Origin: Candidatus Nomurabacteria bacterium
GTDB lineage: Bacteria > Patescibacteriota > Patescibacteriia > Magasanikbacterales > UBA922
Length of the DNA stretch: 64,000 nt
Assembly (NCBI GenBank): GCA_020632445.1
Contig: JACKFN010000003.1
Span: forward strand, 81,118-145,117
Reading direction: 5' to 3'
How positions within the stretch are numbered: position 1 is the first letter of the stretch; each line of letters opens with the position of its first letter. This document shows positions 17,401-50,308 of this stretch, piece by piece. The position numbers and the translations under genes are program-made. The notes beneath the pieces are model-generated. The model ran no database searches. It was not told the origin of the DNA and saw nothing but the letters and a program-made list of their open reading frames with translations.

Positions 17401-19473
17401 ATGAAAAAAATGGATTCTATACTCAAGGGACTGATTGCACTGGTTTTTTTCGTCCCTCTTTTGTTTACACATACCATTTCACAGAATTTTGTTTTTCCGT
17501 TTATTGTACCAAAGATTTTGGCGTTTCGAACCATAGCGCTTTTGATGCTGCTAGTATACGTGACACTTTTACTCAGTCAATCACAAAAGTACAAAATCAA
17601 AAAAAGCCCGCTTACAATAGCGGTTTTGATCTATTTTATCAGTTTTGCTCTTTCAACGTTTTTTGGGGTTGATGCATACCGCAGTTTTTGGGATGGACAC
17701 GAGCGTATGCTTGGGCTCTTTACGCTTTTACATTACGCCATATTCTATTTTGTCGTATCGAGCTCTATCAAGGGATGGAAAGACTGGAGATGGATTTTGC
17801 GCATCTTTTTGTTTGCTGGTGCGCTCGAGATGTTCATGGGAATTTTGCAAAAGGGGAATCCACACCTCTTTTTCAACCAAGGTTCAGCGCGTATCGATGG
17901 AACACTTGGAAACCCAATTTACTACGGTGGTTATGCGCTCTACATTTTTTTCTTGGGTCTGTTTATGACCATGAAAGAAGAAAAGAAGTACTATCGAGTG
18001 TTTTCGATCGTAGCAATGCTTCTCGGGTTCGTGGGAGTGTGGCTGAGTGGAACTCGTGGTACGCAGCTTGCGCTTATTGGATGTGCCGGTTTTGCTATGC
18101 TCGTCTACTTTTTTGTTCTTAAGGGGCACCAGAAAATTCGAATGCTTCTTGCGGCGTTTATGGTTTTGGGAGTGGTATTTTTTGTTGGACTTTTTGCTGC
18201 CAAAGACACTGCATTTGTACAAAACGTGAGTTTCCTTCGCCGTATTGCAAATATTTCTCTGACAGAAGGAACTGGGTATACCCGTCTGCTTGCTTGGGGA
18301 GTAGGGGTAGATGCATGGAAGGAAAATCCAATCATCGGGTGGGGGCCAAATAATTTTATGTTTGGATTTAATAAATACTATCGTGCGGAGTTTTTGCGAC
18401 ATGGGTGGGGAGAAACCTGGTTTGATAATGCGCACAATGTCGTTGTGAATACCTTAACCACACAGGGAGTAATCGGACTACTTTCGTACCTTGGTATCTA
18501 TGTGGTGGTATTTTATTTGCTTATAGTGGCCGTACAAAAAAAGAAAATCGATCCACATACGGCAGTTATATGGGCAGCATTTTTTGTTGGCCACTTGATT
18601 CACAATCTTTTTGTGTTTGAAAATCCAACCTCGTACATTTACTTTTTCTTTGCACTGGCCTTTGTTGCCAGTATGACCCGTGATGGTTTTAGTGATCATT
18701 CACAAGAGGAACAAGTCACAAAAAATCCTTCATTGCCAATAGTAGGAATCGGTGCTGTTGTTATTCTTTTTTTGATTTACAGCACAAACTATCTACCGAT
18801 GAAAGCAAACCGCGCACTCTTGATGTCTATTAATGCCGTCAACACTGGCGGACCTCAAATTCAGGCTTTTGAGAGGGTGAAGCAATATGGTACTCCTCAC
18901 ATTGATGATATTAGGCACGATTTTGCCCAAGCAGTATGGCAGGCAGCTCCAGTATATGCTGAAAATGGCAGGGGACAAGAGATTCTTGATGTCGCTAAAG
19001 TTGCTGATAGAGAACTTGAAAAAAACCATGAACTGCATCCGCTTGATGTTCGTGAAATGGTTCTCCATTATGAACTTCTCTCTGCCATGTATAATTTGTC
19101 TCAGGATTCAAGTTATATAAAGCAGGCAAAGGAACTTATGGAAAGAGCCGTTGAGCTTTCTCCAAAGCGTCAGCAGGTACTTTATAGTTTGGCGCACATT
19201 GCTTATATCGAAGAAGACTATGATACTGCGCTCATGTATTTGCAAAGATCACAGCAAGACGATCCAATTATTACAGAAACTTATTTCCGAATGGCATCTA
19301 TTTACCGTGCACGTGGTGAGTATGAAAAAATCTATGAGGTGATGGAAGACATGGAGAGAAATATTCCACAGCTCAAAGAGAATGATCAAAAAATTATTGC
19401 GCAAATTCGTGCCGATGTAACTGCGCTTATGGTGTCTTCAACAGAAGCTGATGTTCCAGCGATAAAGTATTAA
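17401..19473 (+). CDS. O-antigen ligase/polymerase family (Wzy_C) membrane protein with C-terminal TPR-like repeats
   Basis: Multi-TM protein; GTRG and WGVGVDAWKENPIIGWGPNNF are typical of the O-antigen ligase domain; helical repeat-rich C-terminus. Confidence 0.6.
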   Translation: MKKMDSILKGLIALVFFVPLLFTHTISQNFVFPFIVPKILAFRTIALLMLLVYVTLLLSQSQKYKIKKSPLTIAVLIYFISFALSTFFGVDAYRSFWDGHERMLGLFTLLHYAIFYFVVSSSIKGWKDWRWILRIFLFAGALEMFMGILQKGNPHLFFNQGSARIDGTLGNPIYYGGYALYIFFLGLFMTMKEEKKYYRVFSIVAMLLGFVGVWLSGTRGTQLALIGCAGFAMLVYFFVLKGHQKIRMLLAAFMVLGVVFFVGLFAAKDTAFVQNVSFLRRIANISLTEGTGYTRLLAWGVGVDAWKENPIIGWGPNNFMFGFNKYYRAEFLRHGWGETWFDNAHNVVVNTLTTQGVIGLLSYLGIYVVVFYLLIVAVQKKKIDPHTAVIWAAFFVGHLIHNLFVFENPTSYIYFFFALAFVASMTRDGFSDHSQEEQVTKNPSLPIVGIGAVVILFLIYSTNYLPMKANRALLMSINAVNTGGPQIQAFERVKQYGTPHIDDIRHDFAQAVWQAAPVYAENGRGQEILDVAKVADRELEKNHELHPLDVREMVLHYELLSAMYNLSQDSSYIKQAKELMERAVELSPKRQQVLYSLAHIAYIEEDYDTALMYLQRSQQDDPIITETYFRMASIYRARGEYEKIYEVMEDMERNIPQLKENDQKIIAQIRADVTALMVSSTEADVPAIKY

Positions 19474-19476
19474 TAT

Positions 19477-20454
19477 ATGTATAGCATAGAAGGATCTACT
19501 ATTTTGGTCACCGGAGGGGCGGGTTTTATTGGTTCACATCTTTGTGATGCGCTTCTTAAAAAGGGGGCCAATGTCATATGCGTAGACAATCTGATGACTG
19601 GGAAAAAGGAAAATTTAGCGCAAGCTATGGAGTCTCCAAATTTTTCTTTTGTAGATGGTGATGCGAATAACAAAGAATTTTTACATGGTATTTTTGAAAA
19701 GCAATCTATTGATTATATTTTCCATTATGCTGCCGTACTTGGTGTGCAACGTGTGATAGAGCAGCCACTTCTCGTACTTGATGATATCATCGGTACACGC
19801 GCCATCATGGAACTTGCCAAGGAATTTGGAGTAAAAAAGGTTGTTTTCTCTTCTTCATCAGAGGCCTATGGCCACATGGCAGAGCTTCCACTCAAAGAAG
19901 ATACTGGCAGAGAACTCCAAAACCAAACACACAGTACCAGTTTGTATTCACTTGTAAAAATTACAGGCGAGCAAATCATGCAGGTATATAATGACACTTA
20001 TGGTGTTCCTACCTGTTCACTTCGTTTCTTTAATGTTTTCGGCCCACGCCAGGAGTCTTCTACCTATGGATTTGTGATTGGCATTTTTATTAAACAAATT
20101 TTGGAGGGGAAGGCACCAACGATTTTCGGAGATGGTTATCAAACGCGTGACTTTATTTACGTCGATGATAACATCGAGTCAGCATTGCATGCACTCGAAT
20201 CGGAAAAAGCAGACGGACAGGTTATCAATGTAGGAATGGGGCGCCAAACCACCATAAGAGATCTTGCTGAAAGACTTATCGCTATTTCTGGAAAAGATCT
20301 TGCGCCTATTTTTAAAGAGGCACGAGAGTATGAAATTCGTTATCGGAGTCCAGATGTGACCAAGATGCAAAGTCTTTTGGGAGTTACGATTCAAGATAAT
20401 TTGAATGAAAATCTCAAAAAGACCTATCAGTGGTATGAGCAAACACAAGTTTAA
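19477..20454 (+). CDS. NAD-dependent sugar epimerase/dehydratase (UDP-glucuronate decarboxylase-like SDR)
   Basis: ILVTGGAGFIGSHLCDALLKKGANVICVDN Rossmann motif; YxxxK present. Confidence 0.65.
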   Translation: MYSIEGSTILVTGGAGFIGSHLCDALLKKGANVICVDNLMTGKKENLAQAMESPNFSFVDGDANNKEFLHGIFEKQSIDYIFHYAAVLGVQRVIEQPLLVLDDIIGTRAIMELAKEFGVKKVVFSSSSEAYGHMAELPLKEDTGRELQNQTHSTSLYSLVKITGEQIMQVYNDTYGVPTCSLRFFNVFGPRQESSTYGFVIGIFIKQILEGKAPTIFGDGYQTRDFIYVDDNIESALHALESEKADGQVINVGMGRQTTIRDLAERLIAISGKDLAPIFKEAREYEIRYRSPDVTKMQSLLGVTIQDNLNENLKKTYQWYEQTQV

Positions 20455-21529
20455 AGTTGTTATTTTTTCTGCCTTCTACGATCCGTTCATGAGTGGTGCA
20501 GAACAAATGGTCAAAGAAATCCTTGAGCGCATTGGAGAAAAGTATTCAATGACCCTCGTCACTGCGCGTATCCGTAGAGATTTGCCGAAAAGAGAACAGC
20601 GCGATGGCTATGATATCATTCGCGTCGGTACAGGTACAAAGATCGACAAATTTTTGTATCCTCTGCTTGCTCCATTTGCGGCTCGGCGACTTCAGCCGAG
20701 AATCGTCCATGCCATTTTAGAAAGTTACGCAGGAATTGCATTGTATTTTTTGAAATTTGTATACCCGCGCGCAAAAAGGATATTAACATTGCAAAGTGGT
20801 GGGCTGGATCATGAAGATAAACAAAAAGAGTTTTTTCTCAAACTCTTTTGGAGAAAAATGCATAGTACCCCTCATAAAGTAACGGCGATTAGTCGTTTTT
20901 TGGCTCAAAGAGGTCAGAAATTTCGTGCAGAAACTGTTGATCTCACACCAAATGGTTTGGATTTTTCTCATGTTCCTAAGGGTGTCCCACAAAAAGAGGG
21001 AAGGGTAATATGTGTTGGAAGATTGTCGTGGGTAAAGGGGCATAAATATCTTTTGGAGGCATGGCCACTTGTCCTCAAAGAGGTTCCTGGGGCGCGACTG
21101 GTACTTGTTGGTGATGGGGATGAGCGTAAGAATATTGAGAAACAGACTCGGGAGTTATCCATTCAAGATTCGGTAAAGTTGCTCGGGAATTTGCCGCATG
21201 ATGAGGTACTTAGAGAAATGAGTCAGTCAGAAGTTTTTGTGTGTCCTTCGCTTGCCGAGGGGCTTGGGATTGTTTTTATTGAAGCGCAGGCCTGTGGTAT
21301 TCCGGTAATCGGTACCAATGTGGGGGGGATCCCAGATATCATCGAAGATAACCAAACCGGATACCTTATTGAAACAAAAAATCCAGATCAAATTGCTGAA
21401 AAACTCATTGTACTGCTAAAAGACAAAGAACTACGAAAACGATTTGTAGAAAGTTCTCAGCACACGGTAAAAAAATTTGAATGGAATACGATCATTGCAA
21501 AAATTGATGAGATATATACATCATTATGA
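20435..21529 (+). CDS. Glycosyltransferase family 4
   Basis: C-terminal EGLGIVFIEAQACGIPVIGTNVGG (E-x7-E motif). Confidence 0.7.
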   Translation: MSKHKFKVVIFSAFYDPFMSGAEQMVKEILERIGEKYSMTLVTARIRRDLPKREQRDGYDIIRVGTGTKIDKFLYPLLAPFAARRLQPRIVHAILESYAGIALYFLKFVYPRAKRILTLQSGGLDHEDKQKEFFLKLFWRKMHSTPHKVTAISRFLAQRGQKFRAETVDLTPNGLDFSHVPKGVPQKEGRVICVGRLSWVKGHKYLLEAWPLVLKEVPGARLVLVGDGDERKNIEKQTRELSIQDSVKLLGNLPHDEVLREMSQSEVFVCPSLAEGLGIVFIEAQACGIPVIGTNVGGIPDIIEDNQTGYLIETKNPDQIAEKLIVLLKDKELRKRFVESSQHTVKKFEWNTIIAKIDEIYTSL

Positions 21530-22599
21530 GTGAGCAGCGCAGGAAAATTCTTTTGGTAACAAGTATTTTTCCACCAGAAATTGGTGGGCCTGCTTTATAT
21601 GTAGAAAATTTACAAAAACAGCTCATCAAAAGAGGTTTTGAGGTGCAGGTGGTTACCTATACCATGGGAAGTGGAGACATTGAGGTTGGCGGAGGATCCA
21701 TACTGCGCATGTGGAAATTGTTTGTGTTTTTACTCCGCCAGAAAGAATCATATGATACCGTGGTTACTTTTAATACTTTGAGTACAGGCTTACCGTGCGC
21801 ACTGGCCGCGCGCCTTTTGAGGAAAAAGAAATTTTTGATTCGCGTTGGTGGTGATTATCTTTGGGAACGAAAGGGATCGGGTAAAACTTTGAAGGAATAT
21901 TATACAGATGGACTTCCATTTTCGCAGCGTCTGGTAAAATCTATGATTCGTTTTGTTCTTGGGTCATTTGAGAAGATTATTGTTACGACCGATTGGTATA
22001 AAGAAGTGCTGAAAAAAGAATATGGAGTGAAGGCCAAAGATACAATTTTGATTCAGAATCCTTTTGCCGAGCAGGCAAAGCAGAGAGAAGAGAGAGATGA
22101 TTTTTACTTTTTTGCTGGAAGGCTCGTGCCACTGAAGAACCCTCAAGTCATTATCGAAGCTATGACGAGCGTTCCAGATATGAAACTGAGTATTGCAGGA
22201 GAAGGACCATTGGAGTCAAACCTGCGCATTCTGGTAGATACATTGGGTCTGGGCGAGAGGGTTACCTTTTTGGGAAAGCTCTCTCACGAAAAAATGCTTG
22301 AAACCATGGCGCGCGCAAAAGCAACAGTCATTCCTTCATTGTCTGAAATCAGTCCAAACACACTTCTTGAAAGTATTGCAGCAGGGACTCCCGTGATATG
22401 TACTGACGAGTGTGGTTATAGAGAAAATTTTGATGAAGTTGTTTCTTTTTTTAACCCTCGAAGTGTGGAGGAACTCGTAGCGCAAATTCGTCGTCATCAA
22501 GACGATGCGCAGTATAAAGAGATTGAGCAAAAGGTACAGAGTTTTCGTATCGAGCAGACATGGGACACTCTTGTAGAGGCCTATCAGCAGATTCTATGA
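21526..22599 (+). CDS. Glycosyltransferase family 4
   Basis: GT-B fold signature (RLVPLKNPQVIIEAM...); 4-bp overlaps with both neighbours. Confidence 0.6.
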   Translation: MSEQRRKILLVTSIFPPEIGGPALYVENLQKQLIKRGFEVQVVTYTMGSGDIEVGGGSILRMWKLFVFLLRQKESYDTVVTFNTLSTGLPCALAARLLRKKKFLIRVGGDYLWERKGSGKTLKEYYTDGLPFSQRLVKSMIRFVLGSFEKIIVTTDWYKEVLKKEYGVKAKDTILIQNPFAEQAKQREERDDFYFFAGRLVPLKNPQVIIEAMTSVPDMKLSIAGEGPLESNLRILVDTLGLGERVTFLGKLSHEKMLETMARAKATVIPSLSEISPNTLLESIAAGTPVICTDECGYRENFDEVVSFFNPRSVEELVAQIRRHQDDAQYKEIEQKVQSFRIEQTWDTLVEAYQQIL

Positions 22600-23687
22600 A
22601 TATACTGACACTTGGATCAGATACAAAGATTTTTTCAGTTCATTCAAGCACGCATGAGCGGTCTTTGCAGTATGCAAAATTGGTGGATACCTATGCTGTT
22701 TTGGTACCAGGTCAAGCGGATAAAGAGCAAACTTTTGAAAATGATTTGAAAGCCTATAGTGTGGCAAAAGGTATTGGGCCAATTACGCTGTATCGTTTGT
22801 ATAGACGTGCAAAGCAGATTGTTCATGATGAAAAGATACATGTCATATCTGCTCAGAATCCATTTGAATATGCGCTCGTTGGGTATCTCCTCAAGAAAAA
22901 ATGTGGAGTAAGGTTGCATATCCAAGAACATGGTGATTTTTTTTCACAAACGTATTGGAGAAATGAGCGTATACTGCACTTCTTTAGGTATTACCTAGGA
23001 AAGTTTTTACTGAAAAAAGCAGACAGTATTCGCGTGGTAAGCAAAAAGATACAAAAAACACTTGTTGGCATGGGTATTCCACAAGAGAAAATAGTTTCTA
23101 TTCCAGTTTTTGTTCCACTGGAAAATGCTACATTGAAAAGCCGGGATATTGCTCGCGTGTGCGTCTGCATGATTCGGCTTGTAATGCAAAAGAATCCATT
23201 GATGCTTTTGCGTGCTTGGAAAGGTGTGGTAGAAGAAAAGCCTGATGCAAAGCTTTTGCTTGTCGGAAGCGGACCACTCAAAAAGCAGATACAACATGCC
23301 GTCAAGGGGCTTGGAATTGAAAGTAGCGTTGAGATGCATGATTGGACCGACTCACCAGAGGCATTTTATCAAAAAGCTGATATGAATCTTTTGAGTTCAA
23401 ATTATGAGGGGTGGGGACGAGTAGTCATTGAGGCTGCAGCTCAAGGGATTCCAACGGTGATGACTGATGTGGGATGTGCCGGAGAATTTGTGCAAAATGG
23501 TGTTAACGGAGTCGTTACACCCATCGGGGATGATGCGGCCTTTTCGCGGGCCATTATAGCTCTCATGGAGGATAAAAGTCTTTACCAAATCATGAAAAAT
23601 AATCTTGCCGAGTCATTGAAAACTTTACCTTCACAGGATCAAACTGCGGAAAAGTATATGGAGTCTTGGAAAAAAGCACTCGTATGA
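22596..23687 (+). CDS. Glycosyltransferase family 4
   Basis: EGWGRVVIEAAAQGIPTVMTDVGCAGEFV. Confidence 0.7.
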   Translation: MNILTLGSDTKIFSVHSSTHERSLQYAKLVDTYAVLVPGQADKEQTFENDLKAYSVAKGIGPITLYRLYRRAKQIVHDEKIHVISAQNPFEYALVGYLLKKKCGVRLHIQEHGDFFSQTYWRNERILHFFRYYLGKFLLKKADSIRVVSKKIQKTLVGMGIPQEKIVSIPVFVPLENATLKSRDIARVCVCMIRLVMQKNPLMLLRAWKGVVEEKPDAKLLLVGSGPLKKQIQHAVKGLGIESSVEMHDWTDSPEAFYQKADMNLLSSNYEGWGRVVIEAAAQGIPTVMTDVGCAGEFVQNGVNGVVTPIGDDAAFSRAIIALMEDKSLYQIMKNNLAESLKTLPSQDQTAEKYMESWKKALV

Positions 23688-24727
23688 AACTCTTAGTAAT
23701 TACACAAATAATGGACAAACAGGACGACCTGCTAGGATTCATGCAGGACTGGGTCAGTGCTTTGGCTTCTCAAACGGAGAAGGTAACAGTCATATGTTTG
23801 AAAAAAGGCGATAACAATCTTCCTGGGGGTGTTGAGGTTTTAAGCCTTGAAAAGGAAACGGGAAGTGGGAGACTCAAACGACTTTGGCTCTTTTACAAGT
23901 ACATTTTTACGTACAGAAGACAATACGATGCAGTATTTGTGCACATGAATCCTATTTATGTCGTACTCGCAGGGCTATTTTGGAGAACCATGGGGAAAAA
24001 AATAAGTCTTTGGTACGCTCATTATCGAGTGGGTTTACAGCTTCGTTTCGCCGCTGCGTTTGCGCATGTCATATATACGTCTACCCCATATGCGTGCAGT
24101 TTGAAGTCAAAGAAAGTGCATGTTATAGGACAGGGGATTAATACGGATAGTTTTGTCCCACTAAGCAGAAATTTTTTGGCGCCAACTCGTGTGTTATTTT
24201 TGGGGAGAATCACGCCTGTCAAGGAGCTCGAAGTTCTTATCGAAGCACTCGGCTCACTCAGGGAAGAAGCATGGACCTTGGATGTCGTAGGGGCACCATT
24301 GGAAAGTTCCATGAGCTATTACGAGGGTATTGTCACCCGAGTTGCAGAACTTGGCATATCAGATAGGGTCCTATTTCATGGAAAAGTGGCAAATGCAGAT
24401 ACTGTGAAATTTTATCAAAAGGCAGATATTTTTGTAAACCTCACTCGAAGCGGAAGCTTTGATAAAACAACTCTAGAAGCTATGAGCTGTGGCTGTGTTG
24501 CATTGGCTTCTAATACGGTATTTCAAGAAATTTTTCCACAGAAGTATCATTCAATATTACTTTTTAAGCAGTCAGATGTAAACAGTCTTGCTGATACTTT
24601 GCACAAAATTTTTTCTTTAGAAAGAGAAAAAAAACAGGTACTTTCGCAAGAGATGAGAGATATTATCGAGCAACATCATAGCGTCGGGAGCTTGGCAAAG
24701 AAAATAGTGGATAATTTGAATATATGA
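23684..24727 (+). CDS. Glycosyltransferase family 4-like
   Basis: FLGRITPVKELEVLIEAL...TLEAMSCGCVALASN. Confidence 0.6.
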   Translation: MKLLVITQIMDKQDDLLGFMQDWVSALASQTEKVTVICLKKGDNNLPGGVEVLSLEKETGSGRLKRLWLFYKYIFTYRRQYDAVFVHMNPIYVVLAGLFWRTMGKKISLWYAHYRVGLQLRFAAAFAHVIYTSTPYACSLKSKKVHVIGQGINTDSFVPLSRNFLAPTRVLFLGRITPVKELEVLIEALGSLREEAWTLDVVGAPLESSMSYYEGIVTRVAELGISDRVLFHGKVANADTVKFYQKADIFVNLTRSGSFDKTTLEAMSCGCVALASNTVFQEIFPQKYHSILLFKQSDVNSLADTLHKIFSLEREKKQVLSQEMRDIIEQHHSVGSLAKKIVDNLNI

Positions 24728-34584: not shown

Positions 34585-34611
34585 GCCGACCTGTGGTAGG
34601 TACAGGTCGGC
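34585..34611 (-). terminator. GC-rich hairpin GCCGACCTGT-ggtaggt-ACAGGTCGGC immediately 3' of the island gene (T-run about 20 nt further on)
   Basis: Perfect 10-bp inverted repeat read directly; non-canonical spacing to the U-tract. Confidence 0.4.
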
Positions 34612-34648
34612 GCCGTTGGTGGGGTAGCTCGCCGTGACGAGTGGCGGA

Positions 34649-37669
<3,021 letters not shown>

Positions 37670-37943
37670 CCGATCTGAACACCATCAACACTTCAAACTT
37701 CATCCCCGACACTCAAAGTGGTGCGTGTAGGGTGATTTCGTATCTGACCTGATTGCCAGAGTAAACGAAACACGCTTGGGGTCCCAGCCCTGCAACCGCC
37801 CTTTTCGCTATGAGCGGAAGGAGCTGGGCAGGCACCAACTGACATTTGATCAGCTTATGCCTGCCTGCAGGGTGGAAAAGTTCAAAGAATTTTGAAATTT
37901 TTTGTAAAGATCCTGTATTGCACGTATTGTACAATAACAGGTA

Positions 37944-37972
37944 ATTATAGCAAAAAATGACGCTTTTGTCAA
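37944..37972 (-). promoter_or_regulatory. Perfect sigma70-consensus promoter on the minus strand (TTGACA-17 bp-TATAAT) reading into the high-GC island
   Basis: Reverse complement of 37967-37972 is TTGACA and of 37944-37949 is TATAAT, with a 17-nt spacer. Confidence 0.5.
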
Positions 37973-41832: not shown

Positions 41833-43284
41833 TCACTGTCCCTTAAACCGCAATACGACATTAATCGTTTTCAAAATAATAGAAAAGTTGAGCATCACGC
41901 TTCTATTTTTGATGTAGTAGAGATCATACTGAAGCTTTACCAGTGAACTTTCTAATGTATCGGTATAGTGTTGGTTGATGGCAGCCCATCCGGTGATTCC
42001 TGGAGTGACCGTGTGACGCAAAGAATAGTATGGCATCTGCTCTTCGAGTTTTTCGACGATTTCTGGTCGCTCTGGTCGTGGTCCTATCAGCGTAAGATCC
42101 CCTTTGAGGAGATTAATAATTTGTGGAAACTCATCTAATCGGGTTTTGCGTAATATCTTTCCAACTTTGGTGATACGTTTGTCGCCCTTTTTGGCAAATT
42201 GGGCGCCACTGGTTTCTGCGCTGCCGTCGGCACTGAGCGCATACATAGATCGGAATTTGTAGATGGTAAAAACTTTTCCATATTTTCCGACACGTTTTTG
42301 GGTAAAAAAGATTGGTCCATTGGATTCGAGTCGGATTGCCAGTGCAACAAATGGCAAAAGGAGTAAACCAATAACAGCAATAATTATCCCAAAGAACAAG
42401 TCAAATATTTTTTGGATACGGATACTAAAGCTTTGGTTTCTCTGACCGAGCTGCTGGAGAAAAAAATCTTCTGAAAACGAGCTTGGTGGGACTCTTCCTA
42501 GGGCTGATTCATAAAAGGTTGCCTGATCAAGTATCTGAACGTCCCAAAATAATAGTTGGTAGAGCTCTTTAAGTGCTTTTTCTTGTTTTTGCAGATGAGG
42601 TGCAACAATGATGGTATTGATACTGCGAGTTGTAATAATCGGTCGCATTTTTGAAAGATCTTTGTACGTATCAAATTTTCCTTTGAGAGTATCGAGGTTG
42701 GGATTTTCTTCATCAACAATAGCGCAGACTTGGTATCCCAGGTGAGGTCTCTTGTCGATAATTTCGACAAGCTCTTTGGTGTCAGGAGTAAAACCGACAA
42801 AAAGAAGGCGGTTTTTGAGCTTGTCACTTTTGCTCATGCTACTAAAGATCATTCTCCAAGCATGCAAAAGGGTATAAGAAACTAAACCATAAATAACGAG
42901 GGTCGTTTTTGGGCTGATACCTTGATTGTCAAAAAAATAGAAGTAGATGGTACCTACGACAATGGCCATGAGCATGGTTTGGATGGTTCCAAGCAGTAGA
43001 CGACGCTTATCGGATGGCAATGAGAGATCGTAATATCCATTGATGTATCCGAGGATGAGCCAAAGAAATCCTATCTGTATAAAGGGAAGAAAGTGGAGGG
43101 AGAGCAGTGTTGACGACGCCGGTTCAAGATGTCGCAGTGAAATGCTCAGGTAAAGTCCAAAGACAAGCAGGATAGTATCACCGAACAAAAGGACAAGTTT
43201 TTTAAAGCGTATTCGAGAGATCATATGGGGATGAGGTTGAATCGATTGTAAGTCCCTGGATTTTTTTGTATAATAAACGTACAT
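41833..43284 (-). CDS. Polyprenyl-phosphate hexose-1-phosphate transferase (WbaP/exopolysaccharide 'bacterial sugar transferase' family), initiating enzyme
   Basis: N-terminal TM helices; C-terminal VGKYGKVFTIYKFRSM...DEFPQIINLLKGDLTLIGPRPE. Confidence 0.75.
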   Translation of the reverse strand: MYVYYTKKSRDLQSIQPHPHMISRIRFKKLVLLFGDTILLVFGLYLSISLRHLEPASSTLLSLHFLPFIQIGFLWLILGYINGYYDLSLPSDKRRLLLGTIQTMLMAIVVGTIYFYFFDNQGISPKTTLVIYGLVSYTLLHAWRMIFSSMSKSDKLKNRLLFVGFTPDTKELVEIIDKRPHLGYQVCAIVDEENPNLDTLKGKFDTYKDLSKMRPIITTRSINTIIVAPHLQKQEKALKELYQLLFWDVQILDQATFYESALGRVPPSSFSEDFFLQQLGQRNQSFSIRIQKIFDLFFGIIIAVIGLLLLPFVALAIRLESNGPIFFTQKRVGKYGKVFTIYKFRSMYALSADGSAETSGAQFAKKGDKRITKVGKILRKTRLDEFPQIINLLKGDLTLIGPRPERPEIVEKLEEQMPYYSLRHTVTPGITGWAAINQHYTDTLESSLVKLQYDLYYIKNRSVMLNFSIILKTINVVLRFKGQ

Positions 43285-43298: not shown

Positions 43299-45047
43299 AT
43301 GAGAAAAAATCAAGTTTGGAAGATTGGTGGGTTTGTGGCAGCATTCTTTTTTGTAATTTTGTTTGTAGGATCGAGCGCCCATCCAGCAAGCGCCCTCTAT
43401 GAGCGAAAAAAGTACCTTTCTATAAACAGTGGTGCGAGTGACACTATCAGTCAGTACGTGACCTTATCTATTGGTCGACCATTTAGTGCTACCCATATGC
43501 GACTCGGAAATGATATGGAGTCACTTTCATCGGCATCTTGGATACCTTATAAATCAAAAGTAAGTTGGACCCTGCCATTTCAGTATGGTGAGCGAACTGT
43601 CTATGTACAGTTTCAAAAAGATGACAGGCATAGTTACATTTATGAGGACTCGATTTTTTTTAGAGAACCAAAGGAAAGTGAAAAGAACAAAAAGTACATC
43701 AAGATCAATGGAAATGATAAAACTACAAAGTATCTACGTGTCCGACTCAGTATTACCGTGCCACCCGGCTTTACGCGTATGCGAGTATCCAACAAAGCGG
43801 AAGACTTGTTGCGTATGGGGTGGAGAAACATCAAACGTTCTATGGATTGGGATTTGGCGTATGGTGGTGGCAATACCAAGACGGTGTATTTGCAATTTCA
43901 AGATCAGTTTGGTGTCGAGGGGCCTGTCTATAGCGACAGTATTGATGTGAAGTTTACCTCAAATGTAGATTTGGATTTTCAAATAAATGAGGGGGCCGTT
44001 CAAACTGATTCGCGAGCCGTGACTCTAACATTTACTGATCCGGGTGGAGTTGTTGGTGTAAAAGTCAATAACAGCAATGATTTCAAGGATTTGGAGTTTG
44101 TGCCTATACAGCAAGACATGCCATGGATTTTGAGTGAAAAAAGTGGTACAAAAACAGTATATGTGCGTTATCAAGACTTTCAAGGTGGTGAGAAAACCAC
44201 TAAGGCACAGATTCGTTACGAAGAACCGGAGGCATACATAGAAGCACGGTCACTTATCAAAAGCCCAAATTCACATGTGTACTTTGTTGGTTTTGACGGT
44301 AAGGTGCATCCATTTTTGAGTCCGGCTATTTATCATTCGTGGTATAGTACCTTTGAAAAAGTGCGTTTTGTCTCTGATGCAAAACTTGCAGAGTATCCAG
44401 TGGGTGAGCCAATGTGTGCTCGTCCAGGTTCGTGGCTTTTGCAATTTGGATCTGACCCAAAAATTTATGCCATAGAACCAGCTTGCCGTTTGAGACCATT
44501 GTTTTCTGAAGTCGAGGCTGTGTTGCTTTATGGTGAAAATTGGGGAAAACGAATTTTGAAATTATCACCGGATGAAAGGGTTTTTTATACCATTATTACC
44601 CAGAGCGTACACGAGGCAGAGGCAGGAGTGTATGATACGGATCATGACGGCGTTGATGATGAGATGGAAAAGAATTATGGGTCAAATCCAAATCTTAAAG
44701 ATACTGACGGTGATAAACTCACAGACTACGAGGAGATTTTTATTTGGTTTACCGATCCAGTGCAAAAGGATACTGATTTTGATGGGGTTGGGGATGCTGA
44801 TGAGATTTTGAGTGGTCGCTTGCCAACGGGGCCAACTAATTTTGATACACTTCCTGACAACGCTGTTGAGTATCCAGAAGGGTCACTGGTAAACAAAGTA
44901 AATGCGAGCACGAGTATCTCGGGTGTCAGAAAACAGTTTTTGATTTTGCCAAAGTATTATCTTCCTAAGAGTATAAAAGATAGTATTGGAAAGAAGAACA
45001 CAGCGCATCCGCTTAAGGAATACAATGGTTTGCTTATTCGATTGTAA
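43299..45047 (+). CDS. Secreted protein with C-terminal thrombospondin-type-3-like Ca-binding Asp repeats
   Basis: Signal peptide MRKNQVWKIGGFVAAFFFVILFVGSSAHPASA; DTDHDGVDDE...DTDGDKLTD...DTDFDGVGDADE. Confidence 0.45.
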   Translation: MRKNQVWKIGGFVAAFFFVILFVGSSAHPASALYERKKYLSINSGASDTISQYVTLSIGRPFSATHMRLGNDMESLSSASWIPYKSKVSWTLPFQYGERTVYVQFQKDDRHSYIYEDSIFFREPKESEKNKKYIKINGNDKTTKYLRVRLSITVPPGFTRMRVSNKAEDLLRMGWRNIKRSMDWDLAYGGGNTKTVYLQFQDQFGVEGPVYSDSIDVKFTSNVDLDFQINEGAVQTDSRAVTLTFTDPGGVVGVKVNNSNDFKDLEFVPIQQDMPWILSEKSGTKTVYVRYQDFQGGEKTTKAQIRYEEPEAYIEARSLIKSPNSHVYFVGFDGKVHPFLSPAIYHSWYSTFEKVRFVSDAKLAEYPVGEPMCARPGSWLLQFGSDPKIYAIEPACRLRPLFSEVEAVLLYGENWGKRILKLSPDERVFYTIITQSVHEAEAGVYDTDHDGVDDEMEKNYGSNPNLKDTDGDKLTDYEEIFIWFTDPVQKDTDFDGVGDADEILSGRLPTGPTNFDTLPDNAVEYPEGSLVNKVNASTSISGVRKQFLILPKYYLPKSIKDSIGKKNTAHPLKEYNGLLIRL

Positions 45048-45050
45048 GGT

Positions 45051-47072
45051 ATGAAGAAAAAATTACTGATGATAGGGCTTATAACGGCAATGACAAGTGT
45101 ACCAAGTGTGAGTTTGGCAAAAATGCCGAATGATCCATACGGACAGCAATGGGGTTACAAAACGGTCAATCTTTATGATGCTTGGGATTACACCACCGGC
45201 TCACAAAATGTGGTGGTGGCGGTTATTGACAATGGGTTTGATCGCTTTCATCCAGATCTTCGGGATAATGTATGGATAAATTCTGACGAGATAGAAGGAA
45301 ATGGTGTTGACGATGACAATAATGGGTATATTGATGATGTGTATGGTTGGAACTTTGTTGCCAAAGATTACGATGGGAATGGCATGATTGATGGTCGTGA
45401 AGGGTTTGGAAATAATGATCCGGTTCCCGATGTGAGTCAGGTGGATGCCAAACTCCGCAACGAGGAATCCTCTATCCATCACGGGACAACCATTGCTGGT
45501 ATTATTGGAGCTCGTGGAGACAATGGAAGAGATGGTGCTGGAATTAATTGGCAGGTAAAGCTCATGAATCTTAAGGCACTGGATGAAAAGGGGATTGGAG
45601 AAATGGAAACGATTGTAAGAGCTCTTTACTATGCCGTGGATAATGGAGCGGACATTGTAAATATTTCTCTTGTCGGACCTGAATCAAGTGATAGTTTGCA
45701 GCAGGCTATTGAACATGCGTATCGTCATGACGTGCTCGTTGTGGCAGCAGCGGGAAATAATAGGATAAATCTCAATGGTTCTAGACAATATCCTATTTGT
45801 GTTGATGTAGGCAAAGATCATCAGAGCGTTTTGGGAGTTACGGCGATAGGACGGGAACGTTATCTGGCCTCTTTTTCTAACCGTGGTTCGGATTGTGTAA
45901 ACTTGACGGCACCTGGAGTAGAGGTTGGTGGACCATTGCGCTATGATCCAAACCAGGGATTTGATCGTAGCTATTATGAGCCTGGGTACTCAGGTACTTC
46001 GCTTGCCGCACCATTTGTGAGTGGGGCTGCCGCTTTGGTAAAGGCACTACAGCCACGGTGGGGAGTAGACGAGATTACTCATGCGCTTACGTCGCAGGTG
46101 CACAAAACGCCACCTGATGATGAGGCACTCTACGCGAATTTGTATGGATCAGGGCTTTTGCAGATAGATAAGGCCGTGAGGTTTGCCTATGAACAAAGAT
46201 CAGTTATTGAACAACAAGTCGGCGATCCAGCAGTCGCTATTGCAGGATTTGATATTACAAGAGATTACTTTGCGCTCAAACGACTGGATGATTCTGAAAG
46301 AAAGTTTGATATCATGTCCAACTGGAAAGATGCGAAACAGTTTAAACTCATACAAAATTTTGGACAGGAACAATTGGTAACATTGTATCCAGAGGGCGAA
46401 GAAACTTTTACCATATATTTTCACTATGCGCTCAATCCATTTGCGTACAAGGCAACTTTGCACGCAAATAGCGTGCTCGATTTTACCGTGCGATATAGTG
46501 CTCAGCAAGAGCAGTATATCATGGTGGCATTGCTCCAAAAGAACGCATCAGTCGTTGTTGAGGAGTACGATCTGTTTGGGACATTGCTTGAACAGATTCC
46601 GGTAACCTCTGGAGTATTTGATGAAGGAAAGATCGAGGTATTTTCTGATGAAGTGTACGGTATTACGGTTGTTGGAGAGAAAATTGTCTACGGACAGGTT
46701 TCACCAGGAGGTGAGGCATTTGTTCTTCAGGAGACTCCTAACATCGGCATACAGTCTGTGTATCCGGTGCAACTTGACGGCGATGATCAAAAAGAATTTT
46801 TTGGCGTATTGATGACAGGTGATCACGGTGAACTGGTGGTGATTGATGATAATGGAGCCGTGTTGCAGCAGAAGCTGGTATTTCCCAATGTGTATACGGG
46901 AACGGTGTATGCAAAGCCTTTTGTAGGAAAAAATGGTATACTACAAATGCTGGTATACATGGACAGTGGCCTACAGGAGATAAAGATATATGATTTTGAT
47001 CTCGTAGAGCAAGAATCGTTTTGGTTTTTTTCGCGAGCAAAGCGAAATCTTCAACTTTTTCCTTTGTATTAA
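45051..47072 (+). CDS. Secreted subtilisin-like serine protease (S8)
   Basis: Signal peptide; catalytic triad contexts VVVAVIDNGFD, HGTTIAGII, GTSLAAPFVSGAAAL. Confidence 0.75.
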   Translation: MKKKLLMIGLITAMTSVPSVSLAKMPNDPYGQQWGYKTVNLYDAWDYTTGSQNVVVAVIDNGFDRFHPDLRDNVWINSDEIEGNGVDDDNNGYIDDVYGWNFVAKDYDGNGMIDGREGFGNNDPVPDVSQVDAKLRNEESSIHHGTTIAGIIGARGDNGRDGAGINWQVKLMNLKALDEKGIGEMETIVRALYYAVDNGADIVNISLVGPESSDSLQQAIEHAYRHDVLVVAAAGNNRINLNGSRQYPICVDVGKDHQSVLGVTAIGRERYLASFSNRGSDCVNLTAPGVEVGGPLRYDPNQGFDRSYYEPGYSGTSLAAPFVSGAAALVKALQPRWGVDEITHALTSQVHKTPPDDEALYANLYGSGLLQIDKAVRFAYEQRSVIEQQVGDPAVAIAGFDITRDYFALKRLDDSERKFDIMSNWKDAKQFKLIQNFGQEQLVTLYPEGEETFTIYFHYALNPFAYKATLHANSVLDFTVRYSAQQEQYIMVALLQKNASVVVEEYDLFGTLLEQIPVTSGVFDEGKIEVFSDEVYGITVVGEKIVYGQVSPGGEAFVLQETPNIGIQSVYPVQLDGDDQKEFFGVLMTGDHGELVVIDDNGAVLQQKLVFPNVYTGTVYAKPFVGKNGILQMLVYMDSGLQEIKIYDFDLVEQESFWFFSRAKRNLQLFPLY

Positions 47073-47078
47073 AAATGT

Positions 47079-48107
47079 ATGATGAATGATAATCCCATTT
47101 TTGAGAAAAAGAATGTACTCGTGACAGGAGGGGCTGGTTTTTTGGGTTCACACCTGTGCGAGAGGCTTCTTGCAGATGCCAATGTTATTTGTATAGATGA
47201 TTTTTCAAATTCAAGCATGCAAAACATTGACCATCTTTTGCAATACCCAAATTTTGAATTTATTCGTTATGATGTCGCACAGCCTATTGATCTGGATGCT
47301 TTTGAAGAGCTTGACAAGTTTAAGGTAAAGTTCCAGGGGGTACAGGAAATCTATCATTTGGCTTGTCCAACGAGCCCGAAACACTTTGAGCATCTGAAAA
47401 TCCATTCATTATGGGCAAACTCAAAAGCCATGCTCAACACGTTGGATCTGGCAGTAAAGTACCGGTCCAAATATGTTTTTGCGTCGAGCTCGGTGGTGTA
47501 TGGTTCTGTTACCGAGGATCACGTAATGTTTTCCGAAGAAGATGAAGGAAAAGTAAATCATCTTTCTCCACGTGCTTGTTATGACGAAGGGAAGAGGTTT
47601 GCAGAAACGTGTGTAGAAACCTATCGGCAGGTGTATAGTATTGATGCCAAGATTGCCCGTGTCTTTTCGAGTTATGGGCCGAGGATGCAACTTGACGATG
47701 GACTTTTGGTCCCTGATTTTATTATTAGTGCTATCGAGGGTAAACCGCTCGTTATTTATGGCGATGAGACACTCGAACAATCATTGTGTTATGTATCAGA
47801 TATGGTAGATGGTTTGGTGCGGCTCATGCGTAGTGGTCCCAATCTTTCCTTGGTGAATCTGGGAAGTGACCAAAAGCTCAAGATGGTAGATGTGGCAAAC
47901 AGGATCGTGCAACTTACCAATTCGGTGTCACAGGTAACCTTTGAAAAACCATTGGTATTTCTTACCAAAAAAGGAATGCCAGATTTACGCAGAGCCAAGG
48001 AAAATTTAGGTTGGATACCACTTGTCAGACTTGACGATGGTCTTCAAAAGACGATAGATTACACCATAGCAAGTAGGGAGATGCTTCGTTTTGGACGAGA
48101 CTATTAA
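47079..48107 (+). CDS. UDP-glucuronate decarboxylase-like SDR (UDP-xylose synthase family)
   Basis: VLVTGGAGFLGSHLCERLL...NVICIDDF; YDEGKRFAETCVETY. Confidence 0.65.
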   Translation: MMNDNPIFEKKNVLVTGGAGFLGSHLCERLLADANVICIDDFSNSSMQNIDHLLQYPNFEFIRYDVAQPIDLDAFEELDKFKVKFQGVQEIYHLACPTSPKHFEHLKIHSLWANSKAMLNTLDLAVKYRSKYVFASSSVVYGSVTEDHVMFSEEDEGKVNHLSPRACYDEGKRFAETCVETYRQVYSIDAKIARVFSSYGPRMQLDDGLLVPDFIISAIEGKPLVIYGDETLEQSLCYVSDMVDGLVRLMRSGPNLSLVNLGSDQKLKMVDVANRIVQLTNSVSQVTFEKPLVFLTKKGMPDLRRAKENLGWIPLVRLDDGLQKTIDYTIASREMLRFGRDY

Positions 48108-48130: not shown

Positions 48131-48793
48131 ATGGTGATGGCGATTGTTCCGGCATATAATGAAGGAAAAAAAATTGAGCAGGTGGTAAAAGATCTCCTTT
48201 TGCAGGTGGATAGTGTTGTTGTTATAGATGATGCATCCACAGACAAAACAGGAGTGCATGCAAAAAGGGCCGGAGCGCATGTTCTCTCTCATCGGATCAA
48301 TAGGGGGCAAGGAGCCGCGCTTGAAACTGGGCATATATACGCGCGTATGATGGGGGCAGACTATGTTGTCCATTTTGATGGGGATGGTCAAATGAGCGCG
48401 CAAGACATTCCACCGGCACTCGAGCATCTTAAGGAGAACAATGCTGATATGCTTGTTGGGTCAAGATATTTGGGACAGGCTACCAATATGCCTTGGAGTA
48501 AAAGAAATATACTGGCACCACTGGCGCGTCTGGTAGATAGAATTTTTTCTGGGGTAAAGCTGACGGATTCACACTGTGGATTTCGTGTGCTTGGACAAAA
48601 AGCACTTGGATTAATACACATTACTCAAGATGGAATGGCACATGCGACTCAGATTATCGCACTTTCAAAGCAGCAAGGACTACGACTTGTCGAGTTTCCC
48701 GTCCATATCACGTATGAGCATTACGGTCAGGGGGCACTCGGCGGATTAAAAATTATCAAGGAGCTTATTCTTGGAAAAATAATGAAGCTATGA
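48131..48793 (+). CDS. Glycosyltransferase family 2 (polyprenol-phosphate glycosyltransferase, DPM1-like)
   Basis: IVPAYNEGKKI...VIDDASTDKT DxD region. Confidence 0.7.
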   Translation: MVMAIVPAYNEGKKIEQVVKDLLLQVDSVVVIDDASTDKTGVHAKRAGAHVLSHRINRGQGAALETGHIYARMMGADYVVHFDGDGQMSAQDIPPALEHLKENNADMLVGSRYLGQATNMPWSKRNILAPLARLVDRIFSGVKLTDSHCGFRVLGQKALGLIHITQDGMAHATQIIALSKQQGLRLVEFPVHITYEHYGQGALGGLKIIKELILGKIMKL

Positions 48794-49119
48794 TCAACGT
48801 CTTTCAAATTTTATTTAGCTTATTTGCACTCGCTGCGCTTTACAAAACATACAAGAGAAAAAAGGTTCAACAAATCAGTATGCGAGAGGCTTGGTTTTGG
48901 GGAATATTTTGGTTTGCGGTACTTTTGGTTGTACTTTGGCCAAACAGTGTTCAAATGGTTGCAGATACCCTTGGAATTGGACGTGGAAGTGATCTTGTGC
49001 TCTACGTTGCGGTGGCGCTTCTTTTTTATCTCCTTTTTTCACTACAAATATCATTTCAAAAACTGAATCGCGACATCACCAAGCTCGTACAAAAGGATGC
49101 TGTAGAGGAGAAAAAGTAG
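48790..49119 (+). CDS. Small 3-TM membrane protein (DUF2304-like) commonly paired with GT2 enzymes
   Basis: 109 aa, three hydrophobic segments, 4-bp overlap with the upstream GT2. Confidence 0.4.
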   Translation: MINVFQILFSLFALAALYKTYKRKKVQQISMREAWFWGIFWFAVLLVVLWPNSVQMVADTLGIGRGSDLVLYVAVALLFYLLFSLQISFQKLNRDITKLVQKDAVEEKK

Positions 49120-49120
49120 T

Positions 49121-50308
49121 ATGAAGATAGCGCAGATCGTCTGTAAGTATCGACCATATTTTAGCGGCATGAGTAACGCCGTATTTGAGATTTCACGTCA
49201 GCTTATAGATAGAGGACATGAGGTAACGGTTTTTACTCCAAATTTTGACAGAGAGGAAAAACACGAAGAAGATCATCAGGTTGAGCGCCTTGATCCTTAT
49301 TTTTCGTATGGAAATGCTGCATTTTTGCCAACCCTAGGAAAAAAGCTCAAGAATTTTGATCTGGTGCATCTGCACTACCCTTTTTTTGGGACGGCTGGTG
49401 TGGTAAAACGATTCAAAAGGAAGTATCCGCACATCCCACTTGTGGTAACGTACCATATGGACAATCGTGCGGGTGGTGTCAAGGGTCTCATTTTTGCTTT
49501 CTATGCAAAGTATTTTTTGAAAGATATACTGCGCTGCGCAGATGCCCTTATTGGTTCAACATTTGATTTCATCAAGAGCAGTGACGCCAAGCTCGTGTAT
49601 AACGAAGCACCACATAAGTGGCATGAGATTGCCTTTGGAGTAGACACTGAACGTTTTGTCCCAGGCAAAAAATCATTGTCGCTTATCAGAAGTCTTGATT
49701 TGAATGACAGTGTTCCAACTGTGCTCTTTGTGGGCGGTATGGATAGTGCGCATCATTTTAAGGGCGTAAAGGTGCTTTTGCGCGCCCTTCGAATACTTTC
49801 CAAGGAAAAAATTCCTTTTCAGGCGGTGTTCGTGGGAGATGGTGAATTGAAGCAAGAATATGAGCGTGTTGTTCAAGCATTTTTTTTGAAAACAACGACG
49901 CGATTTGTTGGGCGGGTTTCTGATGAAGAACTTCCTGAGTATTATAGACTGGCTGACGTTTTTGTCCTTCCATCGACATCATCGGCAGAGGCTTTTGGTA
50001 TGGTTCTCCTTGAGGCTATGTCATCCGGATGCGCGACAATTGGTTCGGATTTGCCTGGTGTCCGAGAGATCACTGCAAAAGGAGGGGTTGTTGTTCCGGG
50101 AGGGGATGAAGTGGAGCTCGCTCATGCGTTGGCGGACTTTTTTGCGCTTTCAGAAAAAAAACGGGAGAATATTGCTCGTAAGAATCGTGAAATTATTTTG
50201 CAGGAGTATAGTTGGGAGCGTATTGGCAAGCAGCACGAACAGCTCTATCATAGCGTGGTGGAACATAAATCGAATACTTCGGTTTCTACCGAGCTTGTGA
50301 ACAACTAA
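49121..50308 (+). CDS. Glycosyltransferase family 4
   Basis: VLPSTSSAEAFGMVLLEAMSSGCATIGSDLPG. Confidence 0.7.
   Translation: MKIAQIVCKYRPYFSGMSNAVFEISRQLIDRGHEVTVFTPNFDREEKHEEDHQVERLDPYFSYGNAAFLPTLGKKLKNFDLVHLHYPFFGTAGVVKRFKRKYPHIPLVVTYHMDNRAGGVKGLIFAFYAKYFLKDILRCADALIGSTFDFIKSSDAKLVYNEAPHKWHEIAFGVDTERFVPGKKSLSLIRSLDLNDSVPTVLFVGGMDSAHHFKGVKVLLRALRILSKEKIPFQAVFVGDGELKQEYERVVQAFFLKTTTRFVGRVSDEELPEYYRLADVFVLPSTSSAEAFGMVLLEAMSSGCATIGSDLPGVREITAKGGVVVPGGDEVELAHALADFFALSEKKRENIARKNREIILQEYSWERIGKQHEQLYHSVVEHKSNTSVSTELVNN

Follow-up and report, generated by a model that had tools for sequence, protein, structure and literature searches.

The 64,000 nucleotides of Candidatus Nomurabacteria bacterium contig JACKFN010000003.1 analyzed here (the window; all positions refer to this 64 kb stretch) carry, at 17401–50308, what is probably a Wzx/Wzy-type surface-glycan locus of a Candidate Phyla Radiation (CPR; Patescibacteria) bacterium. 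This locus would have acquired a five-gene sulfation cassette, as well as a lipoprotein gene taken up once from a GC-rich donor. Genes were called using Pfam and NCBIfam profile scans, and bit scores are quoted against the cut-off of the respective model. The open reading frame (ORF) listing and the hidden Markov model (HMM) scans gave 27 genes in the locus; a first-pass annotation, made from the sequence alone, had put the number at about 30 and had otherwise described the content essentially as we found it. That annotation proposed that 3'-phosphoadenosine 5'-phosphosulfate (PAPS) is made within the locus as the sulfuryl donor for glycan sulfation. Its gene list omitted a 3 kb gene of 69% GC (34649–37624, minus strand), an S8 protease, and a 582-aa protein.

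The sulfation cassette comprises five genes in the order ST1-CysQ-CysD-CysNC-ST2. It is bordered on the left by an FkbM-family methyltransferase gene (27274–28053, plus strand; Pfam Methyltransf_21, E 1e-17) and on the right by a Wzx-type flippase gene (33262–34500, minus strand; Pfam Polysacc_synt, E 2e-18). The first gene, ST1 (28037–28879, plus strand), encodes an intact PAPS-dependent sulfotransferase of 280 aa that passed Pfam Sulfotransfer_3 with 36 bits against a gathering score of 27. Its end overlaps by 8 bp the start of a gene for a CysQ-like 3'(2'),5'-bisphosphate nucleotidase (28872–29675, plus strand). These are followed by CysD, the small subunit of sulfate adenylyltransferase (29724–30635, plus strand; NF009214, 434 bits against 413), and by a fused CysN/CysC, which combines the large subunit with adenosine 5'-phosphosulfate (APS) kinase (30637–32445, plus strand; NF004035, 802 bits against 715; Pfam GTP_EFTU and APS_kinase). 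The last gene, ST2 (32458–33265, plus strand), is a disrupted Sulfotransfer_1 gene that was recognized by three-frame translation and by a Pfam scan of the repaired protein. ST1, CysQ, CysD, and CysNC are all full-length and have a composition typical of the host. The annotation's calls of cysD and of the cysN/cysC fusion thus cleared their model cut-offs. For its cysQ call, the family (Pfam Inositol_P, E 6e-47) and the best model (TIGR01331) pointed to a CysQ-like phosphatase, with a score of 202 bits that lay below the equivalog cut-off of 229. Both predicted sulfotransferases were recovered by HMM (the repaired ST2 matched Sulfotransfer_1 at E 9e-21), with ST1 intact and ST2 interrupted by a frameshift and an in-frame TAA.

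Comparative genomics, which the annotation had suggested as a check, supported its proposal through both the cassette slot and the settings of the ST1 relatives. A syntenic locus was found in a Candidatus Magasanikbacteria genome (GCA_002787355.1) and also in two JGI metagenome assemblies. Its genes follow the same order as in the window: a glycosyltransferase of family 4 (GT4), designated GT4g, then DUF2304, a family 2 glycosyltransferase (GT2), an epimerase, the S8 protease, the 582-aa protein, WbaP, an epimerase, a dehydrogenase, GT4f, the GC-rich gene, and Wzx. On the other side of the slot, the Magasanikbacteria locus contains FkbM, a GT4e-like GT4, NodB, an S-adenosylmethionine (SAM)-dependent methyltransferase, GT4d, and GT4c, which is nearly the window order with NodB and the methyltransferase transposed. 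Flanking orthologs of the two loci are 32–82% identical, and the GT4f ortholog occupies the same position at 57% identity. The slot between FkbM and Wzx in Magasanikbacteria holds a GT2, an MBOAT acyltransferase, and a gene without assigned function, and it contains no sulfation genes. This exchange of the sulfation block for an acylation module in a syntenic slot shows that the sulfation genes behave, as judged by gene order, as an exchangeable glycan-decoration cassette. In a GT4-anchored scan of genome contigs, the Magasanikbacteria locus alone proved truly syntenic. Five further candidates (L006–L010) were rejected as syntenic loci; their GT4 relatives were 39–43% identical and lay in other contexts, with no GC island. 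One of these small contigs carries an APS-kinase-like segment beside its GT4f relative (L006 2053–4674; CAZNAQ010000053.1).

ST1 belongs to a very small family: among 5.8 billion proteins, 21 were found at E ≤0.001. In an alignment of 18 members, the PAPS-binding motifs were conserved, with an invariant HSGST loop and a VRDGR..S-type motif. Matches to solved structures by sequence were weak (CurM sulfotransferase, E 0.003). Using AlphaFold (AF2), a model was obtained with a pLDDT (predicted local distance difference test) of 87.5 and a pTM (predicted TM-score) of 0.88, and its top Foldseek matches in the PDB were all sulfotransferases: tyrosylprotein sulfotransferases (TPST1/2), CurM-ST, OLS-ST, Stf0, and heparan-sulfate 3-OST. 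The model therefore confirmed the predicted sulfotransferase fold of ST1. It does not fix the acceptor, because the nearest structures are TPSTs and sulfotransferase domains of polyketide synthases (PKS) at TM-scores of 0.45–0.50.

The genomic setting of the ST1 relatives points toward a glycan. The closest relative (73% identity, locus L070) repeats the order GT4, FkbM, ST1, CysQ and is followed directly by Wzx, without cysDNC. Two remoter relatives have GT4 genes on one side and a flippase or another sulfotransferase on the other, and all contexts examined were glycan loci with glycosyltransferase and flippase genes. We also noted a small contig (L072 2758–6424) in which two different sulfotransferases occur in a cluster of GT9, GT4, and methyltransferase genes. 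PAPS could instead serve the sulfation of another acceptor, such as protein tyrosine, a lipid, or a small molecule, for which protein-tyrosine sulfation by Xanthomonas RaxST with RaxPQ is a precedent. The TPSTs and the CurM/OLS domains among the best structural matches would fit this, as would the adjoining lipoprotein, whose very acidic sequence includes tyrosines with acidic surroundings, such as DPDYE, kept in both orthologs. We nevertheless consider such an acceptor unlikely: the TM-scores to TPSTs are just ~0.5, the examined ST1 relatives all sit between glycosyltransferases and flippases, the cassette stands in for a glycan O-acylation and GT2 module, and the lipoprotein is kept in the Magasanikbacteria relative without any sulfation genes.

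ST2 is inactivated in this assembly by two lesions, a frameshift in an A-run (32627–32632 or 32642–47) and an in-frame TAA (33050–33052). After repair, the protein covers positions 2–245 of the 255 in the Sulfotransfer_1 profile. In the Logan assembly of run SRR12358676, which was made independently for that run, contig L073 ends at 32630 within the A-run, and contig L001 begins at 33051, one base past the T of the TAA. This coincidence of both lesion sites with independent contig ends suggests that they vary in the population rather than reflecting fixed decay, and ST2 possibly exists in on and off states within the population. If the whole cassette were a decaying remnant with no sulfated product, two lesions in ST2 and a slightly sub-threshold CysQ would be natural. 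The other four genes, however, are full-length and host-typical with strong HMM scores, and the contig breaks at the ST2 lesions suggest polymorphism; we regard a remnant as quite improbable.

The PAPS genes could also serve assimilatory sulfate reduction toward cysteine and methionine, with their position in a glycan locus due to chance. CysD and CysNC are standard assimilatory enzymes, and the analysis covers only 64 kb of the genome. Profile scans of the window, however, found no cysH, cysIJ/sir, or cysK, and the sole protein with a PAPS_reduct domain was CysD itself, in agreement with the first-pass statement that cysDNC does not adjoin assimilatory genes. The same scans found no sulfatase gene in the window. 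The PAPS genes are moreover bracketed by two sulfotransferase genes, ST1 and CysQ overlap, and the whole block fills the slot of the acyltransferase module in the syntenic relative. CPR bacteria are also usually without amino-acid biosynthesis. An assimilatory role is consequently very hard to credit. With the sulfotransferase calls upheld by HMM and no assimilatory operon around cysDNC, the reading of the PAPS module as one for glycan sulfation is supported in silico.

Gene identities, the modular cassette, and the sulfotransferase fold were established directly, and from these we infer the acceptor, by context, and the chemistry. The following steps are proposed from knowledge of the families. 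The WbaP-like enzyme would prime polyprenyl phosphate, on which a repeat unit would be assembled by seven GT4 enzymes and one GT2. The unit would probably contain an N-acetyl-hexosaminuronic acid supplied by a TviB/TviC-like pair, and it may be modified by the NodB deacetylase and two methyltransferases. CysD and CysN/CysC would make PAPS from sulfate, ST1 would place sulfate on the lipid-linked glycan at the cytoplasmic side, and CysQ would clear the inhibitory product 3'-phosphoadenosine 5'-phosphate (PAP). Wzx would then flip the unit across the membrane, where the Wzy_C protein could polymerize or ligate it.

Sulfation modules of similar make-up are known from other bacteria. Rhizobial NodP/NodQ with NodH and Xanthomonas RaxP/RaxQ with RaxST both include CysN/CysC fusions (NodQ and RaxQ), as in the window. 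Their acceptors, a lipo-chitooligosaccharide for NodH and a peptide tyrosine for RaxST, are in neither case a Wzx/Wzy glycan. No sequence relation between ST1 and NodH was detectable with the tools used. In Vibrio sp. KMM 8419, the gene cluster for a sulfated capsular polysaccharide contains extra copies of cysN, cysD, and cysC together with sulfotransferase genes, which the authors of that study regard as a hallmark of the synthesis of sulfated polysaccharides. One sulfotransferase region is missing from a sister strain, which makes the sulfation genes modular in Vibrio as well (PMC11641403). The annotation called bacterial sulfated glycans uncommon; the arrangement is less unusual than it implied (PMC11641403). 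Like the window, the Vibrio cluster places PAPS genes and sulfotransferases within a polysaccharide cluster and is modular, but it belongs to a diderm gammaproteobacterium, uses an ABC-transporter (Kps) capsule pathway, and has no reported cysQ; the window locus is of the Wzx/Wzy type in a CPR bacterium. The window further differs in its CysN/CysC fusion, in the coupling of CysQ to a sulfotransferase, and in ST1, which comes from a different and very small family. The xss cluster of Synechocystis PCC 6803, which makes the sulfated exopolysaccharide synechan, is Wzx/Wzy-dependent, with eight glycosyltransferases and two sulfotransferases of the Sulfotransfer_1 and Sulfotransfer_3 types (PMC8205485). 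It resembles the window in its Wzx/Wzy-type organization and in having two sulfotransferases of different subfamilies. It differs in that no PAPS synthesis genes were reported in the cluster and in its set of polysaccharide co-polymerase (PCP) and outer-membrane polysaccharide export (OPX) proteins and dedicated regulators, none of which was found in the window locus (PMC8205485). The type of system is therefore already published for Vibrio and cyanobacteria, and it looks new for CPR bacteria.

Next to the cassette, on the far side of Wzx, lies the GC-rich lipoprotein gene (34649–37624, minus strand; 991 aa). Its GC content of 69% and its GC content at third codon positions (GC3) of 0.92 contrast with ~41% GC for the window and a GC3 of 0.34–0.44 for neighboring genes. 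The GC-rich segment extends over ~34578–37880 with 65–73% GC and contains this one gene. GC3 was uniform at 88–96% over 60-codon bins, including the non-repetitive domain; AAT was used 0 times versus 59 for AAC, and arginine was far commoner than lysine. The Magasanikbacteria ortholog shows the same disparity, with a GC3 of 0.84 against 0.25–0.33 in its neighbors. The gene has a strong Shine-Dalgarno sequence and encodes a lipoprotein signal peptide with the lipobox LLGAC. At its 3' end (34553–34612, minus strand), reading of the sequence revealed a GC-rich hairpin (34583–34612) and then a small hairpin with a T-run in host-like AT-rich DNA. A long antisense ORF (34634–37678, plus strand) was dismissed as a by-product of absent TTA, CTA, and TCA codons.

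The protein is rich in cysteine (81) and aspartate (118) and poor in lysine (3). Avoidance of lysine was rejected as a special feature and is a trait of the family. Pfam detected eight MopE metal-binding motifs (Cu-binding_MopE, E 3e-38, 8 stretches), and ~10 Cys-rich MopE/TSP3-like repeats were counted at the DNA level. The C-terminal domain matched the FGE-sulfatase family, named for formylglycine-generating enzymes (FGEs), over profile positions 3–255 of 255 (PF03781, E 6e-36). In the PDB, it matched TvpA, a variable protein of a diversity-generating retroelement (DGR), best (E 9e-16), ahead of FGEs (E 2e-10), and also matched PvdO and PorK/GldK. The catalytic cysteine pair (LCH..YC) seen in FGE alignments ('ggsflch-es---ycnryr') is absent from the window protein ('ggsaadfgrnpangvlnyr'). 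The missing cysteines and the proximity to TvpA, PvdO, and PorK argue for a lectin-fold binding domain rather than a sulfatase activator, and the most likely role of the product, a Cys-rich protein of the calcium-binding type with a non-enzymatic FGE fold, is to bind a ligand or glycan at the cell surface. FGE-fold C-type-lectin proteins such as Treponema denticola TvpA (2Y3C), PvdO, and the PorK/GldK lipoproteins share the C-terminal domain with it by sequence, and in the window protein, too, this domain stands at the end of a lipoprotein. The ~10 MopE/TSP3-like Cys-rich repeats fused to it and its genome-foreign composition set the window protein apart from TvpA-type proteins. A role as a DGR target was set aside: the 3' 222 nt of the gene occur nowhere else in the window or in 22 kb of the Magasanikbacteria locus (L022), where a template repeat would have given a further copy, and no RVT (reverse transcriptase) domain was found among the scanned proteins of the two loci.

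A host-type promoter precedes the GC-rich gene. It is of the sigma-70 type with an extended -10 (37944–37972, minus strand), and it reads TTGACA-17-TATAAT with 12/12 consensus matches. Between promoter and gene, alignment with the Magasanikbacteria leader (L022 9685–9900) delimited the ~160 nt core of a structured 5' leader RNA (37721–37880, minus strand). Promoter and leader are homologous in the two loci, with a consensus sigma-70 promoter in both, and the promoter would drive the leader and the GC-rich gene. RNAalifold gave a shared multi-stem fold with 49 pairs, 12 of them compensatory, as derived from two sequences, and a fold z-score of -2.9. Rfam 15 returned no match to the leader at the gathering threshold, with noise alone at E >1. 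A covariance model of the leader, whose reach is limited as it was built from two sequences, detected no additional instance across 663 kb of related loci, those of GC-rich relatives included. We propose the leader as a candidate new cis-regulatory RNA.

The abrupt step from 41% to 69% GC, and relatives that occur mostly in GC-rich genomes, might raise the suspicion of an assembly chimera or of contaminating Myxococcota-like DNA. This was rejected as exceedingly improbable on junction, synteny, and upstream evidence. Host sequence resumes on both sides of the segment, and a separate Logan contig (L001) runs across the left junction with 100% identity. Another CPR genome has, in the same GT4f–Wzx slot, a GC-rich ortholog of 51% identity, which is identical in three assemblies, and the promoter and leader are homologous between the two CPR loci. 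An NCBI contig of 147.9 kb that bears the name Candidatus Nomurabacteria bacterium carries identical proteins, the lipoprotein among them. The exact junction pattern of the segment had no match in species-representative genomes, and an exact-sequence look-up of the GC-rich protein returned no record.

The origin of the gene was examined through its relatives, almost all of which lie in contigs of 60–73% GC. The nearest non-CPR relatives were 30–37% identical over the full length among 5.8 billion proteins. For the C-terminal domain, relatives reached ≤47% identity in an exhaustive search of 1.84 billion representatives and ≤50% in a word-indexed search. In a segment scan, the Magasanikbacteria copy was the nearest relative throughout residues 1–720. 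Beyond about residue 720, it gave no match and foreign FGE-domain proteins matched at 45–54%; the breakpoint falls at the last repeat, and the two copies carry non-orthologous C-terminal domains. The exchange of this domain must therefore postdate the split of the lineages, and it brought in DNA that was again GC-rich. The most likely history is a single acquisition from a GC-rich, Myxococcota-type donor before the two CPR lineages split, with later exchange of the C-terminus or patch-wise replacement.

Four-fold degenerate sites at conserved amino acids were compared between the two loci. In flanking orthologs, observed differences of 0.27–0.34 compared with 0.27–0.28 expected for six of seven genes, and the GT4f value was higher (0.43 observed vs. 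0.27 expected). Synonymous sites of the flanking genes are saturated between the window and Magasanikbacteria. The GC-rich pair was also near saturation (0.52 vs. 0.42), yet 83–89% of its sites end in G or C. Where the two CPR copies keep arginine, family members in lower-GC genomes have lysine. Of the marks of a recent island, the GC-rich segment shows an extreme composition; it holds one gene with a host-type promoter, neither mobility genes nor repeats were found at its flanks, and it is syntenic in Magasanikbacteria despite this saturation. Gene conversion between repeat units was rejected as the cause of the high GC3; the non-repetitive lectin-like domain is equally GC-rich. The antisense ORF and a nearby DGR likewise do not explain the persistent composition.

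Each CPR lineage may instead have acquired or reacquired the gene recently and independently from related GC-rich donors, leaving no time for amelioration. The proposed route is patch-wise recombination with environmental DNA via the conserved repeat motifs. The window copy, with its skewed asparagine codons and excess of arginine over lysine, is essentially without amelioration, its C-terminal domain was replaced by other GC-rich DNA after the split, and a separate GC-rich island of 9 kb that encodes a MopE protein is present in a Falkowbacteria genome. We find this history doubtful. No relative in the protein searches exceeded 37% identity over the full length, or 47% (cluster representatives) and 50% (word-indexed search) for the C-terminal domain; residues 1–720 are closest to the other CPR copy in every segment; and the two loci share slot, promoter, and leader, the leader being found beside no GC-rich relative. 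It is tentatively possible that an active process opposes amelioration at this gene, such that a donor-like composition has been held in two AT-rich CPR genomes while neutral sites of the neighbors turned over. One candidate is that patches of environmental GC-rich DNA from the same repeat family have recombined into the gene repeatedly, a process of which the swapped C-terminal domain gives direct evidence; the other is strong selection on the whole mRNA or DNA.

Further GC-deviant MopE genes were observed elsewhere. The Ca. Falkowbacteria island (L004 6001–15000; GCA_043798985.1, JAZDOE010000023.1) has ~57% GC and a GC3 of 0.70–0.83 in a genome of ~40% GC. It encodes four proteins without a Pfam match and a 1550-aa MopE-related protein, and it adjoins radical-SAM, Wzy_C, and GT4 genes. 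In a metagenome contig (L028 1–6976; PVBE012134217.1), GC content jumps from 36–39% in the first 1 kb to ~72%, with a MopE-family gene in the GC-rich part; a further junction of this kind and a chimera are both possible, with a low-GC part too short to interpret.

Several observations weigh against a sulfated Wzx/Wzy glycan locus with a lipoprotein gene acquired once. The structures nearest to ST1 are TPSTs and PKS domains at modest TM-scores, CysQ falls short of its equivalog cut-off, and with one of the two sulfotransferases broken, the module could be decaying. The 64 kb are all of the genome that was viewed, and cysH/sir or a second use of PAPS could lie elsewhere. Among the Pfam calls of the locus proteins, no chain-length regulator (PCP/Wzz) or OPX export family was present, parts that may be irrelevant to a CPR cell envelope. 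Finally, a single ancient acquisition predicts amelioration, of which the GC3 values of 0.92 and 0.84 show none, so the best-supported history carries an unexplained anomaly.

The remainder of the locus supplies the other parts of a Wzx/Wzy-dependent pathway, in which an initiating transferase, a Wzx flippase, and a Wzy-type polymerase or ligase are present. The left edge of the locus follows tRNA-Trp and a small L33-like gene, and the right edge precedes pilT and the dcw cluster. The first gene encodes a Wzy_C (O-antigen ligase/polymerase-like) membrane protein with C-terminal TPR repeats (17401–19473, plus strand; Pfam Wzy_C, E 1e-17), whose sequence does not separate polymerase from ligase. 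It is followed by an NAD-dependent sugar epimerase/dehydratase (19477–20454, plus strand; Pfam Epimerase, E 4e-62; best NCBIfam models below cut-offs). Four GT4 genes then run in series with overlapping ends (20405–21529, 21526–22599, 22560–23687, and 23666–24727, plus strand; Glycos_transf_1, E 1e-20 to 4e-50). Beyond them lie a NodB-type polysaccharide deacetylase (24724–25494, plus strand; Pfam Polysacc_deac_1, E 4e-24), the SAM-dependent methyltransferase (25488–26126, plus strand; Pfam Methyltransf_23 and Methyltransf_11), and the fifth GT4 (26128–27258, plus strand; Pfam Glycos_transf_1, E 4e-29).

On the other side of the cassette, the sixth GT4 (GT4f; 38040–39170, minus strand; Pfam Glycos_transf_1, E 1e-31) lies directly upstream of the GC-rich gene. 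A nucleotide-sugar 6-dehydrogenase (39315–40619, plus strand) scored 391 bits against 190 with TIGR03026; its best model was TviB, at 450 bits below the cut-off of 592. The adjacent epimerase, of the short-chain dehydrogenase/reductase (SDR) type (40706–41617, plus strand; Pfam Epimerase, E 8e-63), had TviC as its best NCBIfam model, far below cut-off. These two models describe a UDP-N-acetylglucosamine (UDP-GlcNAc) C6 dehydrogenase and a UDP-N-acetylglucosaminuronic acid (UDP-GlcNAcA) 4-epimerase, respectively. The WbaP-like polyprenyl-phosphate glycosyl-phosphotransferase, the initiating enzyme (41833–43284, minus strand), matched Bac_transf at E 2e-60 and TIGR03025 with 349 bits against 296. 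Next come the 582-aa secreted-type protein with weak TSP3-like repeats (43299–45047, plus strand; TSP3_bac, E 0.002) and the S8 subtilase (45051–47072, plus strand; Pfam Peptidase_S8, E 6e-43). This pair, the first member with repeats of the calcium-binding type, is kept in both CPR loci (window 43299–47072; L003 918–4712). The locus closes, by Pfam calls on the plus strand, with an SDR epimerase/dehydratase (47079–48107), a GT2 (48131–48793), a DUF2304 membrane protein (48790–49119), and the seventh GT4 (GT4g; 49121–50308). Pfam thus found seven GT4 genes where the first-pass annotation had counted nine, and it confirmed the single GT2, the O-antigen-ligase-like protein, the NodB deacetylase, and the SAM and FkbM methyltransferases. 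The Pfam and NCBIfam calls likewise agreed with that annotation on a UDP-sugar dehydrogenase, which is TviB-like, on the WbaP-like transferase, and on the Wzx flippase, and they gave three SDR epimerase/dehydratase-type genes.

Upstream of the locus, 9263–16977 contains genes for a large serine integrase of the phage type (phrog_95, E 9e-73) and a phage-type primase, along with genes without assigned function. This region abuts tRNA-Trp, has a distinct AT skew, and probably represents a mobile element that has integrated or what is left of one; no repeat resembling an att site was detected for it. It is preceded by a type III restriction-modification pair (4910–8987), which consists of a ResIII helicase-like subunit and an N6/N4 DNA methylase.

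CPR organisms spend their lives attached to other cells, and almost nothing has been learned about the chemistry of their surfaces. The searched literature contained no relevant paper on sulfation in CPR bacteria and nothing relevant on GC-deviant MopE genes in them. Within that literature, the glycan, if sulfated, would be the first indication of a sulfated surface carbohydrate in the Candidate Phyla Radiation, and the swap of a sulfation for an acylation cassette shows how such loci vary decoration. The GC-rich gene contradicts the textbook drift of transferred genes toward host composition. If amelioration is indeed actively opposed, the gene would serve as a recombination sink through which a ligand-binding adhesin is diversified. 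The gene could also give a clue to the partner or donor lineage of these symbionts, or reveal an unrecognized way of keeping an adhesin gene exchangeable.

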